A stretch of 64,000 nucleotides of DNA from an uncultured Clostridia bacterium (lineage in GTDB: Bacteria > Bacillota > Clostridia > TANB77 > CAG-508): positions 3,358 to 67,357 of the forward strand of contig CANRAY010000004.1 of NCBI GenBank assembly GCA_947628735.1. Direction: 5' to 3'. The translations under genes were made by a program, and so were the position numbers. Within the stretch, counting starts at the first letter, position 1. Every line of letters starts with the position of its first letter. The notes beneath the pieces are model-generated. The model was not told the origin of the DNA, did not search any database, and saw nothing but the letters and a program-made list of their open reading frames with translations. Shown here in pieces: positions 19,251 to 41,904 of this stretch.

Positions 19251-20870
19251 ATGTCAAGCTGTTTAGGATTATATATTGAGAGCAATGTAATTAAATATGC
19301 TAAAGTTACAAGAGATCGTGACGTACTAAAAGTTGAATCTTTTGGCATGAAATTTTACGAAAAACTTGAAGAAACAATTAATCAAATTGTTTCAGAAACT
19401 TACAGCTTTAAAACTCCAATTGCAGTTAACTTATCAGAAGAAATGTACAATTATTTCAATATGTTTAGCTTACTTAATAAAGCAGATTTGAAAAAGGCAA
19501 TAGACACGGAATTTGAATCATTTTGTTTTGAAAAAAACATTAACAAAAATGCATATGAATCAAGATATGCATTAGTAAATAATAATGATGATAAAGATAA
19601 AATAAAGGTTTTACACGTTTCAGCTAATAAAGCTACTATTTCAAAAATGATTCAAATTATGAAAGAAAACAAATTGACTACAATAACTCCAATAGGAATG
19701 TGTATACCTAATATTGCAGATATAAAACCTAAAGAAAATATTTTAATTGTTAATATGGAAAATATTACAACAATTACTTCAATTGTTGATCAAAAGGTAT
19801 ATAGTGTTGATAAAATTGCCGTTGGCTCTGATGAGGTTTTAGAAAAAATTGTAGCTAAGGAAAATTCTTATGTTAAAGCATATGAGATTTGTCGTAATTC
19901 TACAATATATACAATGGAAGGTAAAGAATTACAAGACGAAGAAAATGAGTACTTAGATGATATTATGCCAACATTATATAAAATTGTAACAAAACTTCAA
20001 GAATATGTGGCAGATTCAACAATTAAATATGATACAATTTATATCACAGGAACGTTATCTGTGATTAATAATGTTGATTTATATTTCCAAGAATATTTTA
20101 CAGAGGAAAAGTGCGAAATATTGAGACCATATTTCGTAACAGATAATACAAAGATTAATATAAAAGATTATATAGAAGTTAATTCAGCTATTGCTATTGC
20201 AGCACAAGGCGTTGGATATGGAATCCAAAGTATGAACTTTAAGGATCCTACTTTTTCAGATAAGCTTCCTAGTTGGCTAACAGGTGGTTCAGAAGAAAAA
20301 AAAGAAGGAAAAAAAGGCGGATTTAAGATTAATTTGTCTAGTGGCGGAAAAGGATTAGATGCTACTGAAAGATGGTTATTCCGTACAGCAGGTGGAATTC
20401 TTATACTAGTCTTAATTTATGTAGGATTTTCTATTTATTTAGATAGACAAATTAGTGATAAAATAGCAGAAGTAGATGATGTAAAATCAGATACATTAAC
20501 ACAGATTAGTTTAGTAGAAAATGATACGAATTCTGTAAAACAAAAAACAAATAGATATATTGAATTATCAGAAAATTTAAGAAATATTAGTCAACGTGTA
20601 GAAGATGCAGCAAAGGTTAAAAATAATATACCAAATCTATTAACAAGATTAATGTCTATTATTCCAAAAGATGTTCAGTTATTGTCAATTGAAAATACTA
20701 CTGGAACTCATGTAGTAATAGGAGCACAATCTAGAAAATATGAGCAATTGGGATATTTTAAAGCAAAAATAAAAGAAGATAATATTTTAGTTAAAAATAC
20801 AGTTATATCAACACAAGGAGAAAAACAAGGCGAATTTGTAAAAATAACAATAGAGGGGGATTTGCCATGA
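19251..20870 (+). CDS. pilM: Type IV pilus assembly protein, PilM-PilN fusion
   Basis: The N-terminal ~350 aa are an actin-like ATPase-fold PilM. This is followed by a TM helix (ILILVLIYVGFSIYL) and a PilN-like periplasmic domain. 539 aa. Confidence 0.75.
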   Translation: MSSCLGLYIESNVIKYAKVTRDRDVLKVESFGMKFYEKLEETINQIVSETYSFKTPIAVNLSEEMYNYFNMFSLLNKADLKKAIDTEFESFCFEKNINKNAYESRYALVNNNDDKDKIKVLHVSANKATISKMIQIMKENKLTTITPIGMCIPNIADIKPKENILIVNMENITTITSIVDQKVYSVDKIAVGSDEVLEKIVAKENSYVKAYEICRNSTIYTMEGKELQDEENEYLDDIMPTLYKIVTKLQEYVADSTIKYDTIYITGTLSVINNVDLYFQEYFTEEKCEILRPYFVTDNTKINIKDYIEVNSAIAIAAQGVGYGIQSMNFKDPTFSDKLPSWLTGGSEEKKEGKKGGFKINLSSGGKGLDATERWLFRTAGGILILVLIYVGFSIYLDRQISDKIAEVDDVKSDTLTQISLVENDTNSVKQKTNRYIELSENLRNISQRVEDAAKVKNNIPNLLTRLMSIIPKDVQLLSIENTTGTHVVIGAQSRKYEQLGYFKAKIKEDNILVKNTVISTQGEKQGEFVKITIEGDLP

Positions 20871-21610
20871 AAAAGATTTTAAGCTCAGTGTTCATTTTAC
20901 TATTACTTGTATTGGCATATTTCGTTATCTTTCAAGGAATATCAGCAGGCAACTTTAGAGTCTTGAGTGTTGGACAAATAATGGATGCGAATGATACACT
21001 AACAAATAAAATTGCTGAAACGAATTCATTACTAAAAAAAGATTTTGTATCTAAAAAAGAAAGCTTATCAAGCGCTGTATCTGATTTACTAGAAAAAAAG
21101 CAAGAATATTTTAACTTAGCTAAAATAAGTACAACTGGTGAGCTTGCAAAAGCAAATAGAGAAGAAACATATTTGATAGAATATTTATGGGTAAGAGTTG
21201 GAAGACATGCAGGAAGCAAAGGCGTTAATTTAAGAATGGATGTTATGTCAGCAGATGCAGGAGATAGAGATGTTAAAAATTTAGCTTTTAATGTAGAAGG
21301 ACAATATCCAGCAATTATAGAATTTCTATATGCAATTGAGGGTGACAGTGATTTGAACTTTAGAATTGATAGTTTTAAAATACTTCCAAATGGTTCAAAT
21401 TCAACTCTAGTAGCAACATTCTATGTAAATAATGTAAGAATTAAGACAGAGACAGCAACAAGTAGTTCATCTGGATCTACAACAGGATCAACATCTGGAT
21501 CATCAACGTCAGGAAGATCAGCAGGATCAACAAGCTCACAAAGCGGAACTCAAAGTAGTTCAATCAGTGATGAAAATAACACAGAAAATACAAATTCTGT
21601 ATCTGAATAA
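20867..21610 (+). CDS. pilO: PilO-like pilus assembly protein with a Ser/Thr/Gly-rich tail
   Basis: N-terminal TM helix, coiled-coil region and PilO-like domain. Overlaps pilM/N by 4 nt (translational coupling). The C-terminal STGS-rich low-complexity region resembles a Gram-positive wall-spanning segment. Confidence 0.55.
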   Translation: MKKILSSVFILLLLVLAYFVIFQGISAGNFRVLSVGQIMDANDTLTNKIAETNSLLKKDFVSKKESLSSAVSDLLEKKQEYFNLAKISTTGELAKANREETYLIEYLWVRVGRHAGSKGVNLRMDVMSADAGDRDVKNLAFNVEGQYPAIIEFLYAIEGDSDLNFRIDSFKILPNGSNSTLVATFYVNNVRIKTETATSSSSGSTTGSTSGSSTSGRSAGSTSSQSGTQSSSISDENNTENTNSVSE

Positions 21611-21612
21611 GA

Positions 21613-22053
21613 TTGGAGGTAAATATGGTAAAGTCAGTCATTAGAGAAATTATTATTATGCTATTGTTATGTGTAGCAATTGTATTGATTTTAGGAATAT
21701 TGTTCTATGATTATATTCCAACAAATAAAATTGTTCCATCAAAGGAAGCATATGTAACTCCAAGTAATGTAAGAGAAGAAATTGAAGAAAATATAACAGA
21801 AATTAAGAAAACAGAAATTTCATATGAGATTACAGGTTCAGATTTAAATATATACAAACAAAGTCAAAGCTATGTTCCTGGTAAAGAAAATCCATTTGCT
21901 TTGGTAAGTGCTGATACAACAAATTCAGTAAATACTAATAGCGTTGGAGGAGGATCTACAGGAGGAAATCAAAGCTCTGGCAACACAGGTAGTAGTGGTA
22001 GTAGCAAACCAAGTGGAAATTCAACAGGTACATTCTTTAATGATGTAAAATAA
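21613..22053 (+). CDS. Pilus-cluster membrane protein of unknown function (PilP-like position)
   Basis: 146 aa. N-terminal TM helix and a Ser/Gly/Asn-rich C-terminus. Lies between pilO and the pilin gene. Confidence 0.4.
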   Translation: MEVNMVKSVIREIIIMLLLCVAIVLILGILFYDYIPTNKIVPSKEAYVTPSNVREEIEENITEIKKTEISYEITGSDLNIYKQSQSYVPGKENPFALVSADTTNSVNTNSVGGGSTGGNQSSGNTGSSGSSKPSGNSTGTFFNDVK

Positions 22054-22116
22054 TAACTTAGGGTATATTTATAATTTATATAGATATATACAAAAAAAGA
22101 TAAGGAGGAATTTTTT

Positions 22117-22347
22117 ATGTTAAACAATCAAAAAGGTATTACTTTAGTAGCATTAGTTGTAACAATCGTTATATTAATTATATTAGCTACAATAAGTATT
22201 TCAGTTGCATTTAATGGAGGATTAATTAACAGAGCTGAAAGTGCTAGAAATCATCAAGCAAATGCTGATGCACAATACAATGAAATTGTAGAATATACAG
22301 ATTCTAAAGTAAATGGCATTTTAGGAAACGCTTTAGCAGGAAACTAA
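22117..22347 (+). CDS. pilA: Short type IV pilin (76 aa precursor, ~68-aa mature) with a Glu5-less prepilin signal
   Basis: Class-III signal MLNNQKG|ITLVALVVTIVILIILA. Strong SD (AAGGAGG). Followed by a hairpin and T-run. Ala sits at +5 instead of the canonical Glu. Confidence 0.7.
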   Translation: MLNNQKGITLVALVVTIVILIILATISISVAFNGGLINRAESARNHQANADAQYNEIVEYTDSKVNGILGNALAGN

Positions 22348-22399
22348 GAAACAGGTATAAAAAATTGATTTTAAACGGTTTAAAATTAGTTTAAACTAA

Positions 22400-22463
22400 A
22401 TATGAGGTTATCTAAGACTAGAATCATTTTATGATAATTGTATTTAGGTAACCTCTATTTTTT
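22400..22463 (+). terminator. Putative terminator after the pilin gene
   Basis: GAGGTTA...TAACCTC stem (extendable with mismatches) followed by TATTTTTT. The loop is unusually large, so confidence is low. Confidence 0.4.
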
Positions 22464-22478
22464 AAAAAGGAGAAGAAC

Positions 22479-23303
22479 ATGGATTATATACTATATCTAT
22501 TAATTTTTTGCATTGGAACAGTATTTGGTAGTTTTTTTACACTTGCCATTTATCGTATTCCATTAAGACAAGATATTACACATACACGTTCTTATTGTCC
22601 TAATTGTCAGCATAAATTAGCTTTTTGGGATATGATTCCAATATTAAGCTATGTCTTCTTAGGAGGAAAATGTAGATACTGTAAAGAAAAAATAAGACCT
22701 CGTTATTTACTTTTAGAAGTATTATCGGGTGTCGTTTTTGTGTTATTTGCAGTTTCAATAAAATTTAGTATTTTTACAATGACACCTTCTGTTATTGTAT
22801 ATTTAATATTTGCCTTATTATATATTGCAACATTATTTATTATTGCAGGAATAGATAAAGAAAAAATAAGAGTAGAAAAGCCAGTTCTATTATTTGGCTT
22901 TATTTGTGTTAGTATTTATATGATTTATCTATATATAATAGAAAATGATCCTAGTATATATAGATATGTTATATATTTGTTTTTAGCATGTATTTTGACT
23001 ATTTTAGATACATTCTATTTAAGAAAAAAAATTAAAAATAGTTATACAATAGATATATTATTATTATTACTTTTAATAGTAACATTTAGTTATGAATTTG
23101 TATCTATTTATACAATTATTGTTACACTTTTAGCTGTTGCAATACAATTATTGTTACATAAATTATGCAATATAAAGAGTAAATGTATTAAAGTCGACAA
23201 AGTAAAAGATAGTAAAATTCCAGTAGCTTTTTATATGTGTGTTGCTAATATTATTATGATGATTATTACTAATATGTATTTTTTTATCAGTAATGGGATA
23301 TAG
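22479..23303 (+). CDS. pilD: Prepilin peptidase (A24 family)
   Basis: N-terminal tetra-Cys zinc motif (CPNCQHK...CRYCKEKI), then a polytopic membrane domain with catalytic Asp positions (AGIDKEK...). Confidence 0.9.
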   Translation: MDYILYLLIFCIGTVFGSFFTLAIYRIPLRQDITHTRSYCPNCQHKLAFWDMIPILSYVFLGGKCRYCKEKIRPRYLLLEVLSGVVFVLFAVSIKFSIFTMTPSVIVYLIFALLYIATLFIIAGIDKEKIRVEKPVLLFGFICVSIYMIYLYIIENDPSIYRYVIYLFLACILTILDTFYLRKKIKNSYTIDILLLLLLIVTFSYEFVSIYTIIVTLLAVAIQLLLHKLCNIKSKCIKVDKVKDSKIPVAFYMCVANIIMMIITNMYFFISNGI

Positions 23304-23311
23304 GTGGTATA

Positions 23312-23737
23312 ATGAAAAAAAGAAGGAAAATTCAATTAAATATTAAATCTAAAAAAGGTTTTACTTTGCAAGATTTAGTTGCAGCAATTATAATATTTCT
23401 TATTTTTACAAGTACTATTGTGGGATTAATGAGTCTTGCTTATCAGATGTCATATAAAATTAGATTAACAGAAAATGCAACTAGTTATGCTATTCAAATT
23501 ATGGAGGATATTGACAAAATTGCCTATGAAGAAGTTAATAGTTCATTAACAGAAACATATTATAAAGAAAAGTTTCAAATACCAGGAGGCTATCATATAC
23601 ATTTAGATATAAATGAAACTGCTTTAGGAACAGTTAAATATGATATTGTAAAAGAAGTAAAATTAACAATTTCTTATACATTGTATGGTGATGATGAAGA
23701 AATTGTTATAGACAGATATAAAATAAGGGAGTTGTAA
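23312..23737 (+). CDS. Minor pilin/pseudopilin with a near-canonical prepilin signal
   Basis: KKG|FTLQDLVAAIIIFLIF. Asp at +5. 141 aa. Confidence 0.7.
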   Translation: MKKRRKIQLNIKSKKGFTLQDLVAAIIIFLIFTSTIVGLMSLAYQMSYKIRLTENATSYAIQIMEDIDKIAYEEVNSSLTETYYKEKFQIPGGYHIHLDINETALGTVKYDIVKEVKLTISYTLYGDDEEIVIDRYKIREL

Positions 23738-23741
23738 CGAT

Positions 23742-24197
23742 ATGGTAAAATCAGAAAGAGGTGTTACTTTAATTGCTTTAATTATATATATTGCTATGTT
23801 TATGATAATTATTGCTATTATGGGTACAATTAGTAATTATTTTTATAAAAATGTGACAGAAATTAAAGAGCCTTTGAAATATCCATCTGAATTAAATAAA
23901 TTTAACATGTTTTTTATTAATGACGTAAAGAAAAATCAAACAGCTATAACAAATGAAAATGGAACTAGTGTAAGATTTGAAGATGGCACAACTTATATGT
24001 ATTCAGCTGGCAAAATATATAGAGATGACGTTGAAATAGCTAAGAATGTTAAAGATGCAAAATTTTATATGGTAGATTCTTATTATGTAGGAGATGTAAA
24101 AAAGGAAATTGTAAATGTTCAGATTTGGTTTTTAAATGATCCTAGATCTGAAGAAGAAATTATAGAAGGAACAGATTATGTATTGAAATATTGGTAA
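23742..24197 (+). CDS. Minor pilin/pseudopilin, Glu5-less variant
   Basis: ERG|VTLIALIIYIAMFMIII. 151 aa. Starts 5 nt after the previous gene. Confidence 0.65.
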   Translation: MVKSERGVTLIALIIYIAMFMIIIAIMGTISNYFYKNVTEIKEPLKYPSELNKFNMFFINDVKKNQTAITNENGTSVRFEDGTTYMYSAGKIYRDDVEIAKNVKDAKFYMVDSYYVGDVKKEIVNVQIWFLNDPRSEEEIIEGTDYVLKYW

Positions 24198-24284
24198 ATA
24201 AATGTAAATTTATATTAAATCTATTCTTTTTAAAAGATATATAGTATAATTAAAAATAGATGAACAAAAGAAAGGAGTCATGTT

Positions 24285-25907
24285 ATGGATAAAAGACAAC
24301 CTTTAGGAATTGAATTAGTAAAAAGGGGAATTGTAACAGAAAGTGACATTGAGAAAGCTTTAGATTATCAAAAGGCAGAGCCAAGGAAAAAAATAGGAGA
24401 TATACTAAATATATTAAGATTGGCTGATCCATATGTTTTGATTGATGCAATAGGTGAAATTTTAGGAGAAAAAGCAATTTATTTAAGAGAAGCTGATATT
24501 AGAGTTAATATGTTAGACTATATTTCTTTAGATATTGCAAGACAAACAAAAGCGATTCCTTTTGAAGAAGATGGAGGACGAATAAAGGTATGTTTTGCAG
24601 ATACCAGTAACAGACGTTCTGTTGAGACAGTAAGATTGTTATTGCTTAATAAAGGTCTAGTAATGGAAAAATATATTACCTTCGAAACAAATATAGATAC
24701 AATTTTAAATTCATTAGAAGGTAGTTCTGAAAATATTAATATTACATCAGATGTATCTGGATTTTTGGATAGTGTTATTAAATCAGCAATGGAGAAACGT
24801 GCAAGTGATATTCATATTGAACCAATGCAAATGGGACTAAGAGTTAGGTACAGAATTGATGGTCAATTGATGACAGCTATTCAAATAGGTAATGATAAAC
24901 AAGCACAAATAATAGGAAGATTAAAAGCTATTTCAAATATGCATCAAGAAAAACAAGAGTCACAAGATGGTAGAATTATTTTATATCCTGATTATAATAT
25001 TCGTGTATCTTCACAAAAGAATATATATGGAGAGAAATTCGTTTTAAGATTATTGAAGAAAGATGCTGATGTTAGAGGTTTATTTGATTTAGGATTTCCT
25101 GATGATGATCAACTTATAAAAGATGCTTTTAATAAAAAGAATAGTATTACAGTTATTGCGGCACCAACTGGAGAAGGTAAAACAACTACTTTATATAGTA
25201 TTATAGATTTCTTAAATAGAAATGAAATCAATATAACAACAATTGAGGACCCAGTTGAAATTCGTATTAATGGATTAAATCAAATTGAAATCGATAATGT
25301 TAAAACAACATTTGCTAATTCATTAAGAACAGTTCTTAGACAAGATCCTGATATCATTCTAGTAGGAGAAATTAGAGATAATGAAACAGCAGAAATAGCA
25401 ATGCAAGCAGGTCAAACAGGACATTATGTTTTGTCAACAATACATACAATAGATGCAATTGAGGTTATTACTAGATTAAGAAAAATGGGAGTTTCAAATT
25501 ATGATATTTCTAGTACATTAGCAACAACAGTATCTCAAAGATTAGTAAGAAGGTTATGTCCAAATTGTGCTAAAGAAAGACCTTTTACAGATAAAGAAAT
25601 AGAAATTATGACTGAAATTGGAAATAAGTCTGGTGTGAAATTTGACTTTAAAGGGAAAACTACTTTTGATGCAGTTGGATGTAAGAAATGTAATAATACA
25701 GGTTACTATGGTAGAATTGGTATTTTTGAAGTATTAATTCTTAATGATGATATTAAAGAGTTGATTGTAAAAGATGCTTCACCACTAGAAATTAAAAAAG
25801 TTGCATTACAATCTGGATATTTACCATTAATTATAGATGGAATTAATAAAGTTTTATCTGGTATTACCAATTTAGAAGAACTAAATAATAAGTTAGCATT
25901 ATATTAA
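24285..25907 (+). CDS. pilB: Type IV pilus assembly ATPase PilB (GspE family)
   Basis: N-terminal GspII/MshEN-like domain, Walker A (AAPTGEGKTTT), Asp/His boxes and tetra-Cys zinc motif (CPNC...CKKC). Confidence 0.9.
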   Translation: MDKRQPLGIELVKRGIVTESDIEKALDYQKAEPRKKIGDILNILRLADPYVLIDAIGEILGEKAIYLREADIRVNMLDYISLDIARQTKAIPFEEDGGRIKVCFADTSNRRSVETVRLLLLNKGLVMEKYITFETNIDTILNSLEGSSENINITSDVSGFLDSVIKSAMEKRASDIHIEPMQMGLRVRYRIDGQLMTAIQIGNDKQAQIIGRLKAISNMHQEKQESQDGRIILYPDYNIRVSSQKNIYGEKFVLRLLKKDADVRGLFDLGFPDDDQLIKDAFNKKNSITVIAAPTGEGKTTTLYSIIDFLNRNEINITTIEDPVEIRINGLNQIEIDNVKTTFANSLRTVLRQDPDIILVGEIRDNETAEIAMQAGQTGHYVLSTIHTIDAIEVITRLRKMGVSNYDISSTLATTVSQRLVRRLCPNCAKERPFTDKEIEIMTEIGNKSGVKFDFKGKTTFDAVGCKKCNNTGYYGRIGIFEVLILNDDIKELIVKDASPLEIKKVALQSGYLPLIIDGINKVLSGITNLEELNNKLALY

Positions 25908-25931
25908 AAATGAAAACAGGGGGAAAAACAA

Positions 25932-27047
25932 ATGATAGATATGGATAAAGTTTTAAGGACAGCTCAGGAAAAGGATGCTTCTGACGTACATTTAATTTGT
26001 GGAATTAAGCCAACACTAAGAATTCGTAGAGAATTAGTTGATTGCCCAGAAACAGATGTATTAACAGAAGATGATATGGCAGATATTTATGATTATTTTG
26101 TAAGAGGTAATTTAGATAAAGATAAAGTATTTAAAGAAACTAAAAAATTAGATAGCTCTTTTGTATTTGGAGAATTACGTTTGAGGGTTAATATATCTCT
26201 TTCAAATGAAATACCAATTTTTACTCTTAGATTAATAAAAAATACATTACCAAAATATGAAGATTTAGGAGTTCCAGATGTTGTTAGAAGAACAACATAT
26301 CAACCTCAAGGACTTATCCTTGTAACTGGAAAAACAAACTCTGGTAAAACAACTACATTAAATGCTTTAATTAATGAAATAAATGAAACACAAAACAAAA
26401 AGATTTTAACATTGGAAAAACCAGTCGAGTTTAAACATACTAGTAAAAAATCAATTATTGTTCAAAAAGAAATTGGACCAGGTGGAGATTCTTTAACATA
26501 TAGTGATGGTGTAAAGAACTGTTTAAGAGAGGACTGTGATATTCTAGTAGTAGGAGAGATTAGAGATAAAGAGACTATGGAAGCAGCTATTGAAACTGCT
26601 GAATCAGGACATTTAGTTATTGGAACATTGCATACGAAATCTTGTGCAGAAACTATAGACAGAATGGTTAACTTTTATGAAATAAGAGATCAACAACAAA
26701 TTAAATATTTAATTTCATCACTTTTGAAATTAGTTATTGCACAGAGATTGTTACCAGCTAGAGATGGTTCTTTAGTATTAGTACCAGAAGTTATGGTAGT
26801 AGATAATATTATTTCAGGTATTATACGTAAAGAAAAAATAAGTGTTGCTGAAATAGAAGATGCTATTCAAAGTAATAGTGAAAAAGGAAGTATAAGTTTA
26901 ATAAATTCTATTGCTCAATTATTTGTAGATGATATAATTACATTAGATCAAGCAAAAGCACAAATAGAGGAGAAAAATATAGAAATTTTAAATAGAACAA
27001 TTATGCAATTAAAAATCAAAAAAGAAAAAAGATCAACAACAATGTAA
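25932..27047 (+). CDS. pilT: Twitching-motility retraction ATPase PilT
   Basis: ASDVHL...PTLRI N-terminus, Walker A (GKTNSGKTTT), and the size (371 aa) and layout of the PilT family. Confidence 0.88.
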   Translation: MIDMDKVLRTAQEKDASDVHLICGIKPTLRIRRELVDCPETDVLTEDDMADIYDYFVRGNLDKDKVFKETKKLDSSFVFGELRLRVNISLSNEIPIFTLRLIKNTLPKYEDLGVPDVVRRTTYQPQGLILVTGKTNSGKTTTLNALINEINETQNKKILTLEKPVEFKHTSKKSIIVQKEIGPGGDSLTYSDGVKNCLREDCDILVVGEIRDKETMEAAIETAESGHLVIGTLHTKSCAETIDRMVNFYEIRDQQQIKYLISSLLKLVIAQRLLPARDGSLVLVPEVMVVDNIISGIIRKEKISVAEIEDAIQSNSEKGSISLINSIAQLFVDDIITLDQAKAQIEEKNIEILNRTIMQLKIKKEKRSTTM

Positions 27048-27081
27048 ATTCGTTTTATAATGACGAGAAAAGGAGGGAAAA

Positions 27082-28446
27082 ATGCCAGAATATGTTTATC
27101 GTGCAGTAACTTCTAAGGGGCAAATAGTTAGAAACAGAGTGGAAGAAGCCAGCAAAAATACTTTAGTAAAAAAACTGAAGAGTAATGATATGTTACCTAT
27201 TAGTATTGTTCAAGTAGGCTTAATGGGAAAAAAGATTGGTAATAAGAAACAAAATAAAAGAAATATGATAGATATTAATGAAATTATGACACAGGCTGAT
27301 TCATCAAGTATTTTGCAAGGTAAAGCTCAATTAAAACCATCTTTTAAAGAAAGAGTCAATTTGTTAATTGCAAAAGATGAGAAGATTACTATTCAGGATG
27401 TAATTATTTTTACACAGAATTTTTACTTATTAAAAAAGGCCAACTTTAATAATATTCATGCATTAAGTACAATTATAGAAAGTACAGATAATTTATCTTT
27501 AAGAGGTGTTTTGCAGGATATTTTAGCAGGAGTTGAAGGTGGAGAATATATGTATGTTACGATGGAATATTATTCTAACATCTTTCCATACATATACATA
27601 AATATGATTAAAGTAGGAGAACTATCTGGAAATTTAACACAATCTTTGGAACAAGCTGTTAAATATTTGGAAACTTCTTCGAAAACGCAAAAAACATTAA
27701 GAGGAATTATTGTACCAAATTTACTTCAATTATTAATGATATTAGGTTTATTAATATTTGGTGTAGCATATATTATTCCATTAATTCAAGATGCATTCGC
27801 ACAGTCAGGAACAACAGCACAATTACCTGGTATTACACTGTGGTTTGTTGATTTTTGTAATGTGCTTATGGCAAATTGGTATATACCAGTTGTTATTATT
27901 GCAGGAATTGTGGCGATTATTGTTACTTATGTCAATACTCCAAAAGGAAAATATCAATTTCATTATTTTAAATACACAATGCCAGTTTTCGGAAAATTAA
28001 TTTTCGCAATGGATTTTTCAAGATTAATGAAAGCAATGCTTCTAAACCTACAAAATGGAATGAGAATACAAGATGCTTTGGAAGTAGGCAAATCTGTTAT
28101 AAAAAACTATGTTTTGTTGTCTATTATTGAAACAGCAATTAACAATATTTTAATAGGTACTTCATGGATAGAGCCATTTGAAAAGTCTGGATTATGTTCT
28201 TCAATGCAGACTGAGATGCTTAAAATAGGTATGCAAACTGATTTACCAGAAATGATGGAAAAATTAGTAGAATACATGGATATTGAAATTAATAATCAAA
28301 TGCAAAGAGTTATGAAGGTATTACCACAAATCGTATATTCTATTGTTGGTATATTCTTAATTTTCTTAGTACTTGTTATTATCGTACCTTGTGTTCAATT
28401 ATATATGGGAGATTGGATTTTCGACGCAGTGGATTTACCTATGTAA
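27082..28446 (+). CDS. pilC: Type IV pilus platform protein PilC (GspF family)
   Basis: Two GspF repeats, each with paired TM segments. 454 aa. Confidence 0.88.
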   Translation: MPEYVYRAVTSKGQIVRNRVEEASKNTLVKKLKSNDMLPISIVQVGLMGKKIGNKKQNKRNMIDINEIMTQADSSSILQGKAQLKPSFKERVNLLIAKDEKITIQDVIIFTQNFYLLKKANFNNIHALSTIIESTDNLSLRGVLQDILAGVEGGEYMYVTMEYYSNIFPYIYINMIKVGELSGNLTQSLEQAVKYLETSSKTQKTLRGIIVPNLLQLLMILGLLIFGVAYIIPLIQDAFAQSGTTAQLPGITLWFVDFCNVLMANWYIPVVIIAGIVAIIVTYVNTPKGKYQFHYFKYTMPVFGKLIFAMDFSRLMKAMLLNLQNGMRIQDALEVGKSVIKNYVLLSIIETAINNILIGTSWIEPFEKSGLCSSMQTEMLKIGMQTDLPEMMEKLVEYMDIEINNQMQRVMKVLPQIVYSIVGIFLIFLVLVIIVPCVQLYMGDWIFDAVDLPM

Positions 28447-30605: not shown

Positions 30606-32498
30606 ATGAATACAAAATCAACATTTAGGAAAAATGCAAACGATTACTTGACACATACCCACGGAAAAAACGGAATTACGTTAATAGCATTAGTAGTAAC
30701 TATAGTAGTACTAATTATATTAGCGGTAATAAGTATTAATGGAGTATTTGGAGAAGATGGATTAATAGCAAGTGCAGAAAGAGGAAGTATAGAACATACT
30801 CATGCAACAGTGTGGGAAGCAATGGAGATGGAATACTCAAATTACTGGATAGATAAAGTAAATATAGGTGGAGATCTAATTACATATTTGCAGAGTGAAG
30901 ATAGAAATATAATAGGAAAAGAATTACAAGGAACAGGATATGTAATAAATGTAGAGAATTTATTAGGAACAAGAATGTCATTGGGAAATGGAACAGATGG
31001 AAACAATGATGTGTACAAACTAGAACCATTATCAACAGGAGAAGCGAATATTACAAAAGTAGCTTCAACAGGAGAAAATATAAAATTAGCGGAAGAAAAT
31101 AAAGAAGAAAGCGAATATCAAGTAAAATATTATGGCCCAAGTGGAGAAAGAAAACTAGGAATATTAGGAGATAGCATAAGTAGTGAAGTAAAAGTAGAAA
31201 ATGAAAATCTTGATATAACAAAAGGACTAGCTACTAGCCCAGCGCCAAAGGAATATTATTTGGTAGGAGATCAAATTCATTATGAGATAAGAGTAGAAAA
31301 TATAGGCGATGTAGAAATGACTGATATTTATATAAAAGATGAGCTAAATACAAAGGAAAGTGAAGAACCATATACTCCAGGAAATAAATTGATACTAGAA
31401 GGTAATAATAGTGGTAAAGTACAGGCAAAAGACAATCAATGGTATATAGAAGAATTAGGAGTAGATGAAGAAATAATATTTAATTATTATTATACAGTAC
31501 AGAAAGAGGATGTAGGAGAACCAATAAAAAATGCGATAACAAGTTTAACAGGAACTCCAAAACCAATACCAAAAGGACATAAAATACCAGAAGTAGAGGT
31601 ACAAGTACCAGTAGTAGGAAGTGTACCAGTTAAAAAGATATTACATATGACACGATGGGAAGATAATATTGAGGGAAATTATGAAGAATATTTGAATCTA
31701 GCTTGCTTACATCCTAGATTTGAACTTTACAAAGGTGATGAAATGGTTGGTTTTATTACTATCGACTTAGTTTCCACTCATTTGTGGGTTCATCCGGATG
31801 GAATGGAATGGCCGTCAGAACCTGTTTCTGAGGAATATGAAAAGACTGGTACCTTTACGAATATTCCAGTCGGAGAGTATAAATTGAAGGAAACTACCAC
31901 TATACAATATTATGCTGCGGGTCATGAACATACACATGATGAAAGGATTTATGATGTTTCAGTTTTGTCGGAAACTGAAACTGAGATAAAACTTAATAAT
32001 GAAGTGAAGCAGACAGCAGAATTTGAGGATACATGTTGTGCTATAAAACGTATATATATACCAAAAGGATGTGTGGCTGGCCCAAGAAGCTTTGCGGTCC
32101 ATGTAAGTTGGAAAGGCTGGGAAGATGAATCTAGTCATCCCGTATTAGGTAAGGACATTATAATAAAATGGGAAAAGACGACTGTGTGGTACGGAACAGG
32201 TGTTTCTAATAAAGAAATCGTTTGGAATATTGATGACAATAGTAGAATTGAAGGAGAAGATGGATGGTATGAAAGTATAAAAGAATGCTGGACTTATACT
32301 CCGATAACTATACAGAATGCCTCGGGGGAACAGGTTAAATATGGGACAATGACGGATGAGTCTTCTAATAATTTAACTTTAAAATTAGATAATGGTGATA
32401 ATGTTAAAATTACAATGGATTCAGAATGTGATCGCAGTAAAATTTGGGGGAATAGTAGAGAAGTTTTAGCTTGTATCCTGATTGAAAAGATAGATTAA
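30606..32498 (+). CDS. Large (630 aa) pilin-like adhesin with a Glu5-less prepilin signal, DUF11/CnaB-type domains and a Cys-rich C-terminus
   Basis: 23-aa leader, then G|ITLIALVVTIVVLIILA. The DUF11-like repeat is YYLVGDQIHYEIRVENIGDVEMTDIYIKD. The CnaB/prealbumin-like segment is GTFTNIPVGEYKLKETT. About 8 Cys lie in the last 200 aa. GC content and codon usage shift upward from ~31700. Confidence 0.7.
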   Translation: MNTKSTFRKNANDYLTHTHGKNGITLIALVVTIVVLIILAVISINGVFGEDGLIASAERGSIEHTHATVWEAMEMEYSNYWIDKVNIGGDLITYLQSEDRNIIGKELQGTGYVINVENLLGTRMSLGNGTDGNNDVYKLEPLSTGEANITKVASTGENIKLAEENKEESEYQVKYYGPSGERKLGILGDSISSEVKVENENLDITKGLATSPAPKEYYLVGDQIHYEIRVENIGDVEMTDIYIKDELNTKESEEPYTPGNKLILEGNNSGKVQAKDNQWYIEELGVDEEIIFNYYYTVQKEDVGEPIKNAITSLTGTPKPIPKGHKIPEVEVQVPVVGSVPVKKILHMTRWEDNIEGNYEEYLNLACLHPRFELYKGDEMVGFITIDLVSTHLWVHPDGMEWPSEPVSEEYEKTGTFTNIPVGEYKLKETTTIQYYAAGHEHTHDERIYDVSVLSETETEIKLNNEVKQTAEFEDTCCAIKRIYIPKGCVAGPRSFAVHVSWKGWEDESSHPVLGKDIIIKWEKTTVWYGTGVSNKEIVWNIDDNSRIEGEDGWYESIKECWTYTPITIQNASGEQVKYGTMTDESSNNLTLKLDNGDNVKITMDSECDRSKIWGNSREVLACILIEKID

Positions 32499-36961: not shown

Positions 36962-37099
36962 TATGGAATATAATGTAGGAGATGTTGTTCAAACTAAAAA
37001 ACAACATCCGTGTGGTAGTAAGCTATGGGAGATAACAAGAGTGGGTGTTGATTTTAAATTGAAATGTTTAGGATGTCGGACATGTTATATTATTAGATA
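36962..37099 (+). CDS. DUF951-family small protein (45 aa)
   Basis: MEYNVGDVVQTKKQHPCGSKLWEI...CLGCRTCYIIR matches the DUF951 pattern as I recall it. Below the ORF-track cutoff. Confidence 0.55.
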
Positions 37100-37152
37100 G
37101 GCCTAAGGCCTTAAAAATGATTGTAAAGAAAATAGAAAATTAAATATTTTAC

Positions 37153-37190
37153 ATTGAAAAGCCCCCGATGCAAAGCACCGGGGGTTTATC
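37153..37190. terminator. Bidirectional GC-rich intrinsic terminator
   Basis: CCCCCGATGC-aaa-GCACCGGGGG (one mismatch), with TTTAT on the + side and CTTTTC on the - side. Confidence 0.7.
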
Positions 37191-37257
37191 GTGGGCACTC
37201 ACAGAGTTACCCGTGGTTGGAAGTTACATGTAATGAGCTTGGGTTATACTTATGCCT

Positions 37258-37518
37258 TCAAGCGTTTCCACGCGAGGCCAGGTAGTAACCACCCAACTCG
37301 TTAGCCCTCTTTTCGAGGGCACTGAAGACGGAAATGCGGCAGCCGATCTTCCAGGTTACCAGAACCTGGTTGCTGACGCGGGACAAGGAACCGTCACCGC
37401 TCAGCGGATGCTGGGCATATGCCACGTTCGGGTTGTGGTTGGCTTCGAAAAGGAAGCTGTCAGCTACCTTTGGATCATCGAAGATGAACCGTGATGCTCT
37501 TTTTACTTGCTTGGACAT
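37258..37518 (-). CDS. Anomalous GC-rich (~55% GC) small ORF (86 aa) of unknown function; could instead be a structured RNA
   Basis: On the - strand it is preceded by a GGAAGGGGGA SD 9 nt before the ATG and a perfect sigma-A promoter, and it is followed by a terminator. Codon usage (CGC, GGC, CTG, AGC) is foreign to this genome. The other - frames contain stops. Confidence 0.4.
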   Translation of the reverse strand: MSKQVKRASRFIFDDPKVADSFLFEANHNPNVAYAQHPLSGDGSLSRVSNQVLVTWKIGCRISVFSALEKRANELGGYYLASRGNA

Positions 37519-37582
37519 TAATCATGTCCCCCTTCCGATAATGTATTTTTTTGCCATACACAAAATGCGTATAACGTATTAA

Positions 37583-40845: not shown

Positions 40846-41904
40846 ATGAAAATAAAATCAACATTTAAGGAAAGTGCAAACAATTACTTGCCACATACAA
40901 GAAATGCTAATGGTATTACTCTTATTGCACTGGTTGTAACTATAATAATTTTAATTATATTAGCAATGGTAAGTATAGGAGCAATATTAGGAGACAATGG
41001 ATTAATAAATATGGCAACTAAATCTTCAGAGGAATATACTAAAAAAGCGGAAGAAGAACAAAAACAATTAAATGATATAGAAGATTATATAAATGATATT
41101 ACAAACTCAAATTGGGAAAATTATGATGATGATTCAGGTAAAGAAGAAACACCAAAATTAGAAACACCCAAATTAGAAAAACCAACTGGTGACGATAAAA
41201 CTTTAGAAATAGGTGAAGTTGTAATAAATAATAATCCTTTAGATAAAGGTTGGAAATATTTCTGTCAAGATGAAGATAATTATTATTTTATATACGAAGA
41301 TTTTTTTGATAGTGATGCAATTCCGAATCCTGGTACAACACGTGGTGGTTGGATACGAATAACAGAACCATATAATCTTATGTCATTATATAGTAATAGT
41401 AGTAATCAAGAAAGACAAGATGATTTAGTTAATTATTTATTAGGTGCAAAAAATTACGCAGGTATATGGGATCCAGTAACAGAGGCTATTAAAGAAGCAT
41501 TAAGAAAAAAAGATTTACCTGAAGAAGAAATAAATAAGATTTCTACAACAGGATCACCAATGAAAGAACAATTTGCAGATGCATATAATGAAAGATATGG
41601 TGAAACTAAAAAATTGGTTGTTACAGGTCAGACTAGCAATTATTATGGGGATTATAACTTAGGAAATTTTGGATATGTAAAAAGTTTAGATTTGACTGAC
41701 GAAGAAATTTATAATAATGATTTATTTTTTCCTCATCATGAAAAATATGAAGGATGTCCCGGTTATTGGTTAGCATCTGCTTCAAATATGCATTGGTATG
41801 TATGTTATGTATCTTGTATGGATTGTAAACTTGGTACAAATGATGGTGGAGTAATGGCCGGAATACGTCCATTAGTTAAAATTCCAAAATCTTTATTTGA
41901 ATAA
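40846..41904 (+). CDS. Large pilin-like protein (352 aa) with a conserved 23-aa leader and Glu5-less prepilin signal
   Basis: MKIKSTFKESANNYLPHTRNANG|ITLIALVVTIIILIILA, a paralogue of the 30606 gene. AGGAGGAA SD. Cys- and aromatic-rich C-terminus. Confidence 0.65.
   Translation: MKIKSTFKESANNYLPHTRNANGITLIALVVTIIILIILAMVSIGAILGDNGLINMATKSSEEYTKKAEEEQKQLNDIEDYINDITNSNWENYDDDSGKEETPKLETPKLEKPTGDDKTLEIGEVVINNNPLDKGWKYFCQDEDNYYFIYEDFFDSDAIPNPGTTRGGWIRITEPYNLMSLYSNSSNQERQDDLVNYLLGAKNYAGIWDPVTEAIKEALRKKDLPEEEINKISTTGSPMKEQFADAYNERYGETKKLVVTGQTSNYYGDYNLGNFGYVKSLDLTDEEIYNNDLFFPHHEKYEGCPGYWLASASNMHWYVCYVSCMDCKLGTNDGGVMAGIRPLVKIPKSLFE

Follow-up and report, generated by a model that had tools for sequence, protein, structure and literature searches.

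A predicted type IVa pilus locus of gut Clostridia (order TANB77) with subunits lacking Glu5 and a PilD homologue lacking the GxGD motif

In a 64,000-nt stretch of contig CANRAY010000004.1 (assembly GCA_947628735.1), which derives from an uncultured bacterium of the Clostridia order TANB77 and is hereafter called the window, ten co-directional open reading frames (ORFs) at 19251-28446 form a cluster of the type IVa pilus (T4aP) kind. All ten are intact, lie on the plus strand with short gaps or overlaps, and follow the order PilMN-like, PilO-position, 146-aa, pilin, PilD-like, two minor pilins, PilB, PilT and PilC. Our analysis supports the presence of a complete T4aP-type locus in the window. 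It further suggests, with a probability that we put at roughly 55%, that TANB77 bacteria assemble a functional T4aP-type pilus from subunits with Ala at mature position 5, without the Glu5 salt bridge and with a PilD homologue that would no longer be the essential leader peptidase across the order. Below, pilin-like proteins are named by the first nucleotide of their gene in the window, an arrow marks the predicted cleavage site, and mature residues are counted from +1.

A six-frame scan for N-termini of the form G-x-[TS]-hydrophobic found exactly five prepilin-type proteins in the window. Four of them carry Ala at +5, namely 22117 (MLNNQKG↓ITLVALVVTI), 23742 (MVKSERG↓VTLIALIIYI), 30606 (...HGKNG↓ITLIALVVTI) and 40846 (...RNANG↓ITLIALVVTI). 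The fifth, 23312 (...KSKKG↓FTLQDLVAAI), has Asp at this position, the sole acidic +5 residue among the pilins of the locus, and Glu5 occurs in none of the five. An earlier note on this DNA had proposed that four of the five prepilins share one Ala5 cleavage-site context, and the motif scan bears this out, with 4 occurrences of G[IV]TL[IV]AL[VI][VI] in the window and 0 in 200 shuffled versions. The DNA of the four copies differs at synonymous sites, which argues for selection at the protein level and not for a recent DNA duplication. All five ORFs begin with a class III-type leader, i.e. a short basic segment that ends in Gly and is followed by about 21 hydrophobic residues, and this arrangement is kept in 80 related loci. 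The Pfam model N_methyl (PF07963; cut-off 21.2 bits) just recognizes 22117. At 15.2, 10.6 and 12.0 bits the other three Ala5 proteins stay below its threshold, and it gives no match at all to the Asp5 pilin 23312.

The candidate major pilin is 22117, a 76-aa protein (69 aa when mature) with the sequence MLNNQKG↓ITLVALVVTIVILIILATISI, which combines Ile1, Thr2 and Ala5 and is free of proline. Its gene is preceded by a strong Shine-Dalgarno sequence, AAGGAGGA, and followed by a hairpin (minimum free energy -20.6 kcal/mol, z -4.9; none of 200 shuffled sequences folds as stably) that runs into UAUUUUUU. A consensus terminator scan did not find this hairpin because its loop is long. The strong Shine-Dalgarno sequence together with the hairpin and U-run fits the gene of a highly expressed major subunit. 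A consensus promoter scan returned 71 sites against 72.6 expected and is uninformative in DNA as AT-rich as this.

To place the locus in a wider context, one genome per GTDB species was surveyed; at least 503 of these encode a relative of the PilD homologue, and the best 80 loci were analysed, with about 20 kb read around the locus in each related genome. These 80 belong to uncultured gut Clostridia, among them Clostridium sp. CAG:273, CAG:508, CAG:245 and CAG:452 as well as a closed chromosome of 1.57 Mb; the family CAG-508 and the genus CAG-245 have been placed in the order TANB77 (PMC11680825). The order uppP, PilMN-like, PilO-position, 146-aa, pilin, PilD, two minor pilins, PilB, PilT, PilC and ROK recurs in essentially all 80 loci, each of the ten cluster genes being found in 74-80 of the 80 except for the Asp5 minor pilin (60/80). 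By this synteny the pilus locus is a constrained, vertically inherited system.

The detector used for pilins in these loci demanded Gly at -1, Thr or Ser at +2 and hydrophobicity, so the frequencies of Gly-1 and Thr2 given here are not independent evidence; position +5 was left unconstrained. Across 250 pilin-like ORFs from the 80 species, +1 is occupied by Ile (163), Val (42) or Phe (35) and +5 by Ala (128), Asp (57), Ser (33), Thr (13) or Glu (4). Pilin orthologues stand upstream of pilD in 75 of the 80 loci, one to three per locus, and among 96 such proteins Ile1 is found in 91, Thr2 in 93, Ala5 in 92 and Thr9 in 91, with the consensus (Q/E)(K/R)G↓ITL(V/I)ALV(V/I)TI(V/I)VL(L/I)ILA(G/T). The claim that the putative major pilin itself lacks Glu5 thus extends to the whole order and is no peculiarity of one genome. 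The major pilins come in two mature sizes, 61-78 aa in about half of the species and 121-172 aa, and only 4 of 93 contain a proline within +1 to +40. About 350 homologues of the major pilin are without a name or a Pfam annotation. In one related locus (L033, 3556-7300) six tandem pilin paralogues of 168-201 aa share an identical mature N-terminus, ITLIALVVTIVVLLILAGITI, and differ in their C-terminal parts, and a second locus (L021) has three copies of the same type; the six look like a gene array, possibly one that serves variation.

The two minor pilins behave differently from each other. The first gene after pilD encodes Asp5 in 57 of 57 positional orthologues; its window copy, 23312, shows weak similarity to ComGF and ComGE (NCBIfam, E 0.0014 and 0.0047). 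The second, of the 23742 type, has Ser (32), Ala (23), Thr (8) or Glu (3) at +5, i.e. Glu in just 3 of 70, and Tyr9 in 68 of 70. In sister lineages the first minor pilin carries Glu5 (G↓YSLIE, G↓YSLLE, G↓FSLIE), so the Asp5 pilin is best read as its Glu5-to-Asp5 derivative. The second reads G↓VTLT[ST]L..Y9 there, with no acid at +5, even though PilD is canonical in these lineages and the other minor pilin has Glu5; 23742 is therefore an ordinary acid-less cap pilin. Where the earlier note regarded four Glu5-less prepilins as anomalous, the anomaly thus holds for the major pilin and the modular proteins 30606 and 40846, while 23742 is what one expects of a cap-type minor pilin. The sister PilDs P0298, P0303, P0304 and P0317 share a GIDKE..IPD first motif and keep both GxGD and a PF01478 match. 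A strict co-variation of GxGD loss with Glu5 loss was considered and is rejected by two sister lineages, one of which has GYGD together with three Thr5 pilins, G↓(V/I)SLITLVITI (and a fragmented PilB), while the other has a degenerate SFGI and keeps the Glu5 minor pilin G↓FSLIE. In some sister lineages that have a canonical GxGD PilD (L087, GCA_002308995.1, DBWQ01000023.1; L088; L089; L084) the pilus cluster is decaying; PilB is split into two to three ORFs in independent assemblies, and the C-terminus of PilD P0317 is scrambled.

The second departure from known bacterial pili concerns PilD. The sole family match of the PilD homologue is to the N-terminal domain A24_N_bact (PF06750, E 2.4e-30), whereas Peptidase_A24 (PF01478) gives no match even at E<=10 and the GxGD motif is absent. 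Every one of 62 diverse sequences has the cysteines C40, C43, C65 and C68, a GGKC motif is likewise invariant, and this N-terminal Zn-finger/methylase module is the best-conserved part of the protein. The homologue has thousands of relatives in metagenomes, and the best 120 of these are without a name and carry PF06750 only. An hhalign comparison with database PilDs that have GxGD shows both halves to be homologous (probability 100, E 2.1e-50, 247 columns), and it aligns D126 to the invariant first Asp of canonical PilDs. An AlphaFold2 model built from the 62-sequence alignment (mean predicted local distance difference test, pLDDT, 92.6) retains the A24 fold of the membrane module and matches the fold of FlaK; a model from 13 close sequences reached a pLDDT of 49 and was unusable.

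Neither catalytic position is fixed in this protein family. The first-Asp column holds Asp in 75 and Glu in 6 of 81 species, and Asp in 45 of 53 clusters at 50% identity. The canonical second Asp falls on T190 by hhalign and on D192 or I193 by the other alignments, three in all. The D192 and I193 placements came from a P. aeruginosa PilD sequence and serve as a guide only; the mapping was repeated with database PilDs. None of the three columns is conserved as acidic. Column 192, which lies no more than two residues from where GxGD aligns, reads D31 E26 Q10 G8 S4 N2 in the 81 species (acidic in 57, non-acidic in 24) and Q12 D11 N11 E7 S4 G3 K3 in the 53 clusters (non-acidic in 35), the T190 column varies among T/P/V/A/S, and the I193 column is I/V/L. 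Both Asp residues are present in 21 of 21 canonical relatives from the same search. D126 and D192 occur together in the window copy and likewise in 31 of the 81 species. Two lineages that have lost the first Asp (GIYLE and GIAKT) nonetheless keep the Asp5 minor pilin as well as KG↓ITL(V/I)(A/S)L pilins, and in the larger of their two contigs PilMN, PilB, PilT and PilC are intact. E206 and E128 were considered as replacement catalytic residues and rejected, E206 because it is not conserved among the 50% clusters and E128 because it also occurs in sisters with GxGD.

Cleavage by A24 enzymes is described as critically dependent on both Asp residues, which are said to be conserved universally (PMC10191384). 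Because the Asp columns here are not conserved, we infer that the PilD homologue is not an obligatory two-Asp peptidase across the order, its conserved part being the methylase module. The divergent PilD that the earlier note had proposed is hence found to a greater degree than foreseen, with no PF01478 match, no GxGD and no conserved second acid, and an eroded peptidase site is favoured over the changed specificity then suggested. A related observation comes from a set of proteins of about 250-290 aa (P0333, P0344-P0347, P0350, P0351, P0355, P0356, P0361, P0378 and P0399), in which the N-terminal module of PilD is fused to a pilin-like segment in place of the peptidase domain. This segment has a canonical cleavage site, mostly with Glu5, e.g. 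...SKKG↓VFISELVIASILF. The fusions indicate that the methylase module can exist without any A24 domain.

The Ile1/Ala5 N-terminus is also found on much larger proteins. In the window these are 30606, with matches to DUF7507 (1.6e-7) and DUF11 (2.3e-6), and 40846. Their leaders (30606-30674 and 40846-40914) have 23 aa each, which is unusually long against the 7-aa leaders of the cluster pilins, and they resemble each other (M-x-x-KSTF-x-x-x-AN-x-YL-x-HT-x-x-x-NG); in other loci, modular proteins have leaders of 5-28 aa. When metagenomes were scanned for the motif by exact degenerate-DNA matching, at least 120 stretches were returned. Among the matches listed, most come from human gut with guanine-plus-cytosine (GC) contents of 0.25-0.35, and most carriers are proteins of 200-800 aa, whose domains include Big_2, DUF11/DUF7507 and a weak match of the FGE-sulfatase-like (lectin-fold) type; several have no known domain. 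Motif contigs with a GC content of about 0.4 were considered as evidence of other taxa, an idea rejected when the one inspected turned out to be a composite with the pilin gene in its low-GC part. A tblastn search of phage and plasmid collections with the pilin N-terminus gave no match, although the low-complexity filter may have masked it. A 71-aa N-terminal query gave 43 homologue candidates, all short and not informative on breadth. Taken as a predicted module, Ile1/Ala5 is a common N-terminus of large putative surface proteins in these bacteria, including 30606 and 40846.

From these observations we propose the following scenario. The polymerising subunits would be the short major pilin together with an extensive set of modular, pilin-like surface proteins, all carrying a leader that ends in (Q/E)(K/R)G followed by Ile1-Thr2-Leu3-(Val/Ile)4-Ala5 in place of Phe1...Glu5. 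The leader would be cut after the invariant Gly by another A24-type peptidase encoded elsewhere, and the PilD homologue would most likely act as an N-methyltransferase and/or a pilin-handling partner; in lineages with both D126 and D192, that of the window included, a weakened residual PilD activity may still cleave the leader. Filament growth would proceed without the salt bridge between Glu5 and the N-terminal amine. Instead, hydrophobic packing of an unbroken alpha1 helix without proline, together with the conserved Thr2, would keep the subunits in place, much as in archaeal and Tad filaments. In published cryo-electron microscopy, Thr2 is reported to be hydrogen-bonded to the N-terminus of a neighbouring subunit, and helices to be continuous where Pro22 is absent (PMC10710030). 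In the priming complex, Asp5 of the first minor pilin and the N-terminus of the acid-less cap pilin probably form a pair. For PilD of P. aeruginosa, substitutions of Glu5 impair N-methylation, so a methylase that is active here would need a different substrate requirement. More tentative, and in our view rather doubtful as a whole, is the far-reaching version that joins a peptidase-dead PilD acting as methyltransferase or chaperone, another enzyme or chemistry for leader removal, salt-bridge-free, archaeal-like packing of Glu5-less and proline-less subunits by a bacterial PilB/PilT/PilC machine, and the use of the Ile1/Ala5 N-terminus as a general tag with which each genome exports and displays dozens of large, adhesin-like proteins.

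Several points weigh against our scenario. The match to the FlaK fold is not independent, because canonical PilDs sat in the alignment used for the model, and the alignment around GxGD is of low confidence, the three methods disagreeing on the position of the canonical Asp. With D126 and Asp192 in place, the PilD homologue of the window may be an active peptidase of altered specificity. The designation of 22117 as major pilin is that of a candidate, drawn from position, size, conservation and expression signals, and we infer cleavage, methylation and filament formation from sequence. As about 20 kb per genome was read, a second A24 peptidase or a Glu5 pilin may be encoded elsewhere.

The peptidase question also underlies the most serious alternative, in which the PilD homologue has remained both peptidase and methylase, works through D126 and D192 with a new specificity for Ile1/Ala5, and the Asp-less orthologues are special cases. 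The acidic majority at column 192 among species, the retained A24 fold and the constant position of the pilD gene next to its putative substrates speak for it, and a published Tad-like cluster of TANB77 that encodes no peptidase of its own would fit a single shared enzyme. We nevertheless consider it somewhat unlikely, given that both Asp residues are described as universal and critical in A24 enzymes (PMC10191384), that 24 of the 81 species, and 35 of the 53 clusters, lack an acid at column 192, that hhalign places the canonical Asp on T190 and not on D192, and that lineages with Tyr or Ala at the first-Asp position have intact pilin leaders and, in one case, an intact cluster as a whole. If processing were lost altogether, K-G-I-T-L would be an uncleaved signal-anchor and the pilin-like look of the locus a relic. 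An eroded active site and the low N_methyl scores of most of these proteins would agree with this, but the short basic leader is kept across 80 species, the Asp-less lineages included, the PilD homologue is best conserved in its methylase module, whose substrate is the new N-terminus, and PilB, PilT and PilC are strongly constrained. We judge the absence of processing to be quite improbable.

A different view of the product is that the machine is mainly a device for surface display or secretion, with a short pseudopilus or anchor, the 76-aa protein as a pseudopilin-like spacer and no long adhesive or motile pilus. The size and the Big_2, DUF11 or lectin-like domains of most motif carriers listed from metagenomes, the two motif genes that lie outside the cluster in the window and the very short major pilin of about half of the species (61-78 aa mature) all lend it some weight. 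On the other hand, a PilT-type retraction ATPase, typical of dynamic T4aP, is kept at up to 86% identity, many species have pilins of 120-170 aa or tandem arrays at the major-pilin position, and modular pilins are compatible with true pili, as is generally known from Streptococcus sanguinis. A mere display device thus appears unlikely to us. That the locus is decaying or non-functional is the least credible of the alternatives, and very improbable; fragmented PilB and frameshifted PilD do occur in sister lineages, yet the ten ORFs of the window are intact, most of the 80 species keep them in synteny with identities of 46-86%, and the N-termini are kept at the protein level despite synonymous change. 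A functional pilus of Ala5 subunits remains our preferred reading.

The machinery genes are those of a T4aP, the window encoding PilB-type and PilT-type ATPases and a PilC with two T2SSF repeats (Table 1). PilB and PilT are each found in 77 of the 80 loci (identity 64-82% and up to 86%, respectively) and PilC in 75 (55-81%); the latter also matches GspF (1.1e-49) and PilC (3.9e-36) of NCBIfam, both below the equivalog cut-offs. The 539-aa PilMN-like protein, present in 74 of the 80 loci at 46-67% identity, has no Pfam or NCBIfam match of its own in the window, and PDB sequence and profile searches gave coiled-coil noise only. Among 11 of its orthologues, however, 8 have a Pfam PilN match (best E 2.1e-5) and two a T2SSM match, while the PilM half shows only weak actin-fold matches (EutJ, E 0.017; FtsA, 0.08). 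The 247-aa protein (76/80 loci) and seven orthologues have no Pfam match, so its PilO label denotes position and topology. Of the labels given in the earlier note, the ORFs and their order stand, PilM/N is partly backed, and PilO is a matter of position and topology. No Pfam match exists either for the 146-aa protein and its orthologues (77/80 loci, identity 41-69%). The PilO-position protein (21400-21610) and the 146-aa protein (21900-22053) both end in long low-complexity tails rich in Ser, Thr, Gly and Asn, which may be wall-spanning or glycosylated linkers.

Table 1. Features of the pilus cluster and of the two modular pilin-like genes in the 64,000-nt window.
Feature	Position	Strand	Remarks
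539-aa PilM/PilN-like fusion	19251..20870	+	cytoplasmic N-domain, transmembrane segment ~378-400, coiled coil, C-terminal domain
247-aa bitopic protein, PilO position	20867..21610	+	Ser/Thr/Gly-rich tail
146-aa bitopic protein	21613..22053	+	Ser/Gly-rich tail
Candidate major pilin, 76 aa	22117..22347	+	Pfam N_methyl 22.2 bits
Terminator-like hairpin and U-run	22404..22466	+	between pilin gene and pilD
PilD homologue, 274 aa	22479..23303	+	Zn-finger/methylase module and diverged A24-fold membrane module
Minor pilin, 141 aa, G↓FTLQD	23312..23737	+	Asp5
Minor pilin, 151 aa, G↓VTLIAL..Y9	23742..24197	+	cap-type, Glu5-less
PilB-type extension ATPase, 540 aa	24285..25907	+	T2SSE 1.8e-103, MshEN 1.3e-7
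PilT-type retraction ATPase, 371 aa	25932..27047	+	T2SSE 1.6e-43
PilC/GspF-type platform protein, 454 aa	27082..28446	+	T2SSF, two stretches, 3.7e-25
Modular pilin-like protein, 630 aa	30606..32498	+	23-aa leader, G↓ITLIALVVTI, DUF7507/DUF11 Ig-like domains
Modular pilin-like protein, 352 aa	40846..41904	+	23-aa leader, G↓ITLIALVVTI, C-terminal domain without known family

Close to the locus among described systems are the T4aP of monoderm bacteria (the pil loci of Clostridium and Clostridioides, PilE1/E2 of S. sanguinis). They have the same PilB, PilT, PilC and PilM/N/O-type proteins, a bimodular PilD with a pilin gene beside pilD, several minor pilins with one acid-less cap among them, and large proteins with a pilin N-terminus (PilB and PilC of S. 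sanguinis). In contrast to these, the major and modular pilins of TANB77 have Ile1/Ala5 and not Phe1/Glu5 and lack Pro22, the PilD homologue is without GxGD or a PF01478 match, the remaining acidic +5 residue is Asp and not Glu, and modular pilins appear very numerous. The archaeal pilins and archaellins, whose class III signal peptides are cut by FlaK/PibD, a peptidase type without the bacterial N-domain, differ in that the TANB77 machinery is bacterial (PilT, a PilN domain, an A24_N methylase module), that G↓ITLIA is a close variant of the bacterial consensus G↓FTLIE and that the host is an order of Clostridia. The cap pilins of the GspK/PilX/PilK type resemble 23742 (G↓VTLIAL..Y9), which has no acid at +5 in TANB77 or in the sisters, and a tip subunit without Glu5 is described in a review (PMC10191384); this class, however, accounts for one of the four Ala5 proteins and for neither the major pilin nor the modular proteins. 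PilA-N of Geobacter (about 65 aa) is similar to the TANB77 pilins of 61-78 aa mature length (69 aa here) in having little beyond alpha1. It keeps Phe1/Glu5, and no PilA-C-like partner was recognised in the window locus.

Tad/Flp systems have very short pilins too, as in the TANB77 cluster, and a Tad-like locus has been published from the same host clade; Pfam and NCBIfam searches found no Tad/Flp genes (TadA/CpaF, TadB/TadC, TadZ, G↓xxxxEY Flp pilins) in the cluster. In the Tad structure of Caulobacter, alpha1 runs without a break and no salt bridge links Glu5 to another subunit (PMC10710030). The published TANB77 cluster comprises CpaB, TadZ/CpaE, TadA/CpaF, a TadB-TadC fusion and seven pilin-like genes (Kim et al. 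2024, PMC11680825). The PilB/PilT/PilC locus is a different locus with a different machinery, and Flp pilins keep Glu5-Tyr6; N-terminal motifs, a peptidase or a PilB/PilT/PilC cluster are not mentioned in PMC11680825. In the literature the motif GITLIAL was found in no paper, and searches on Glu5-less major pilins gave canonical systems only. The earlier note had allowed that homologues might routinely carry Ala5 and already be characterised; Ala5 is indeed routine, and none of the homologues is characterised. The predicted machine is a type IV pilus, with a subunit chemistry and a PilD state that lie outside what is described for bacteria.

Further features of the window lie outside the pilus cluster. 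A GC-rich island of about 350 nt (37150-37520, GC content 0.49-0.58 against 0.28 for the genome) contains a minus-strand ORF of 86 aa (37258-37518), which has a good Shine-Dalgarno sequence and no family match. The island is flanked by a GC-rich hairpin at about 37160-37190, has no Rfam or tRNA match and may be foreign DNA or an undescribed element; just upstream of it lies a DUF951 protein of 45 aa (36964-37101, E 2e-20). By eye, 49842-52744 resembles an Agr-like quorum-sensing locus with an AgrB-like membrane protein of 201 aa (+) and a histidine kinase of 450 aa (-). Its LytTR response regulator is apparently split into 52505-52744 (receiver) and 52003-52278 (LytTR), which suggests a frameshift or pseudogene.

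Glu5 has been regarded as the only functional residue common to all bacterial type IV pilins, and current ideas on subunit docking, charge neutralisation and PilD-dependent methylation build on it. An order with Ala5 major pilins, a PilD without GxGD and an intact, strongly constrained PilB/PilT/PilC system therefore offers a natural experiment on the need for the salt bridge, the purpose of N-methylation and the separability of the two PilD activities. Motif-based pilin finders and the Pfam and NCBIfam models miss these proteins, most of which have neither a name nor a Pfam annotation. TANB77 is abundant in the human gut and has been tied to the response to cancer immunotherapy via a different pilus-like cluster (PMC11680825). 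Given this abundance and this link, surface filaments of TANB77 and a large protein family sharing their N-terminus are of practical interest. If the far-reaching version of our scenario were true, the steps of pilin maturation would be uncoupled in TANB77, and it is chiefly through this locus that a clinically relevant and abundant gut order would display its surface proteins.

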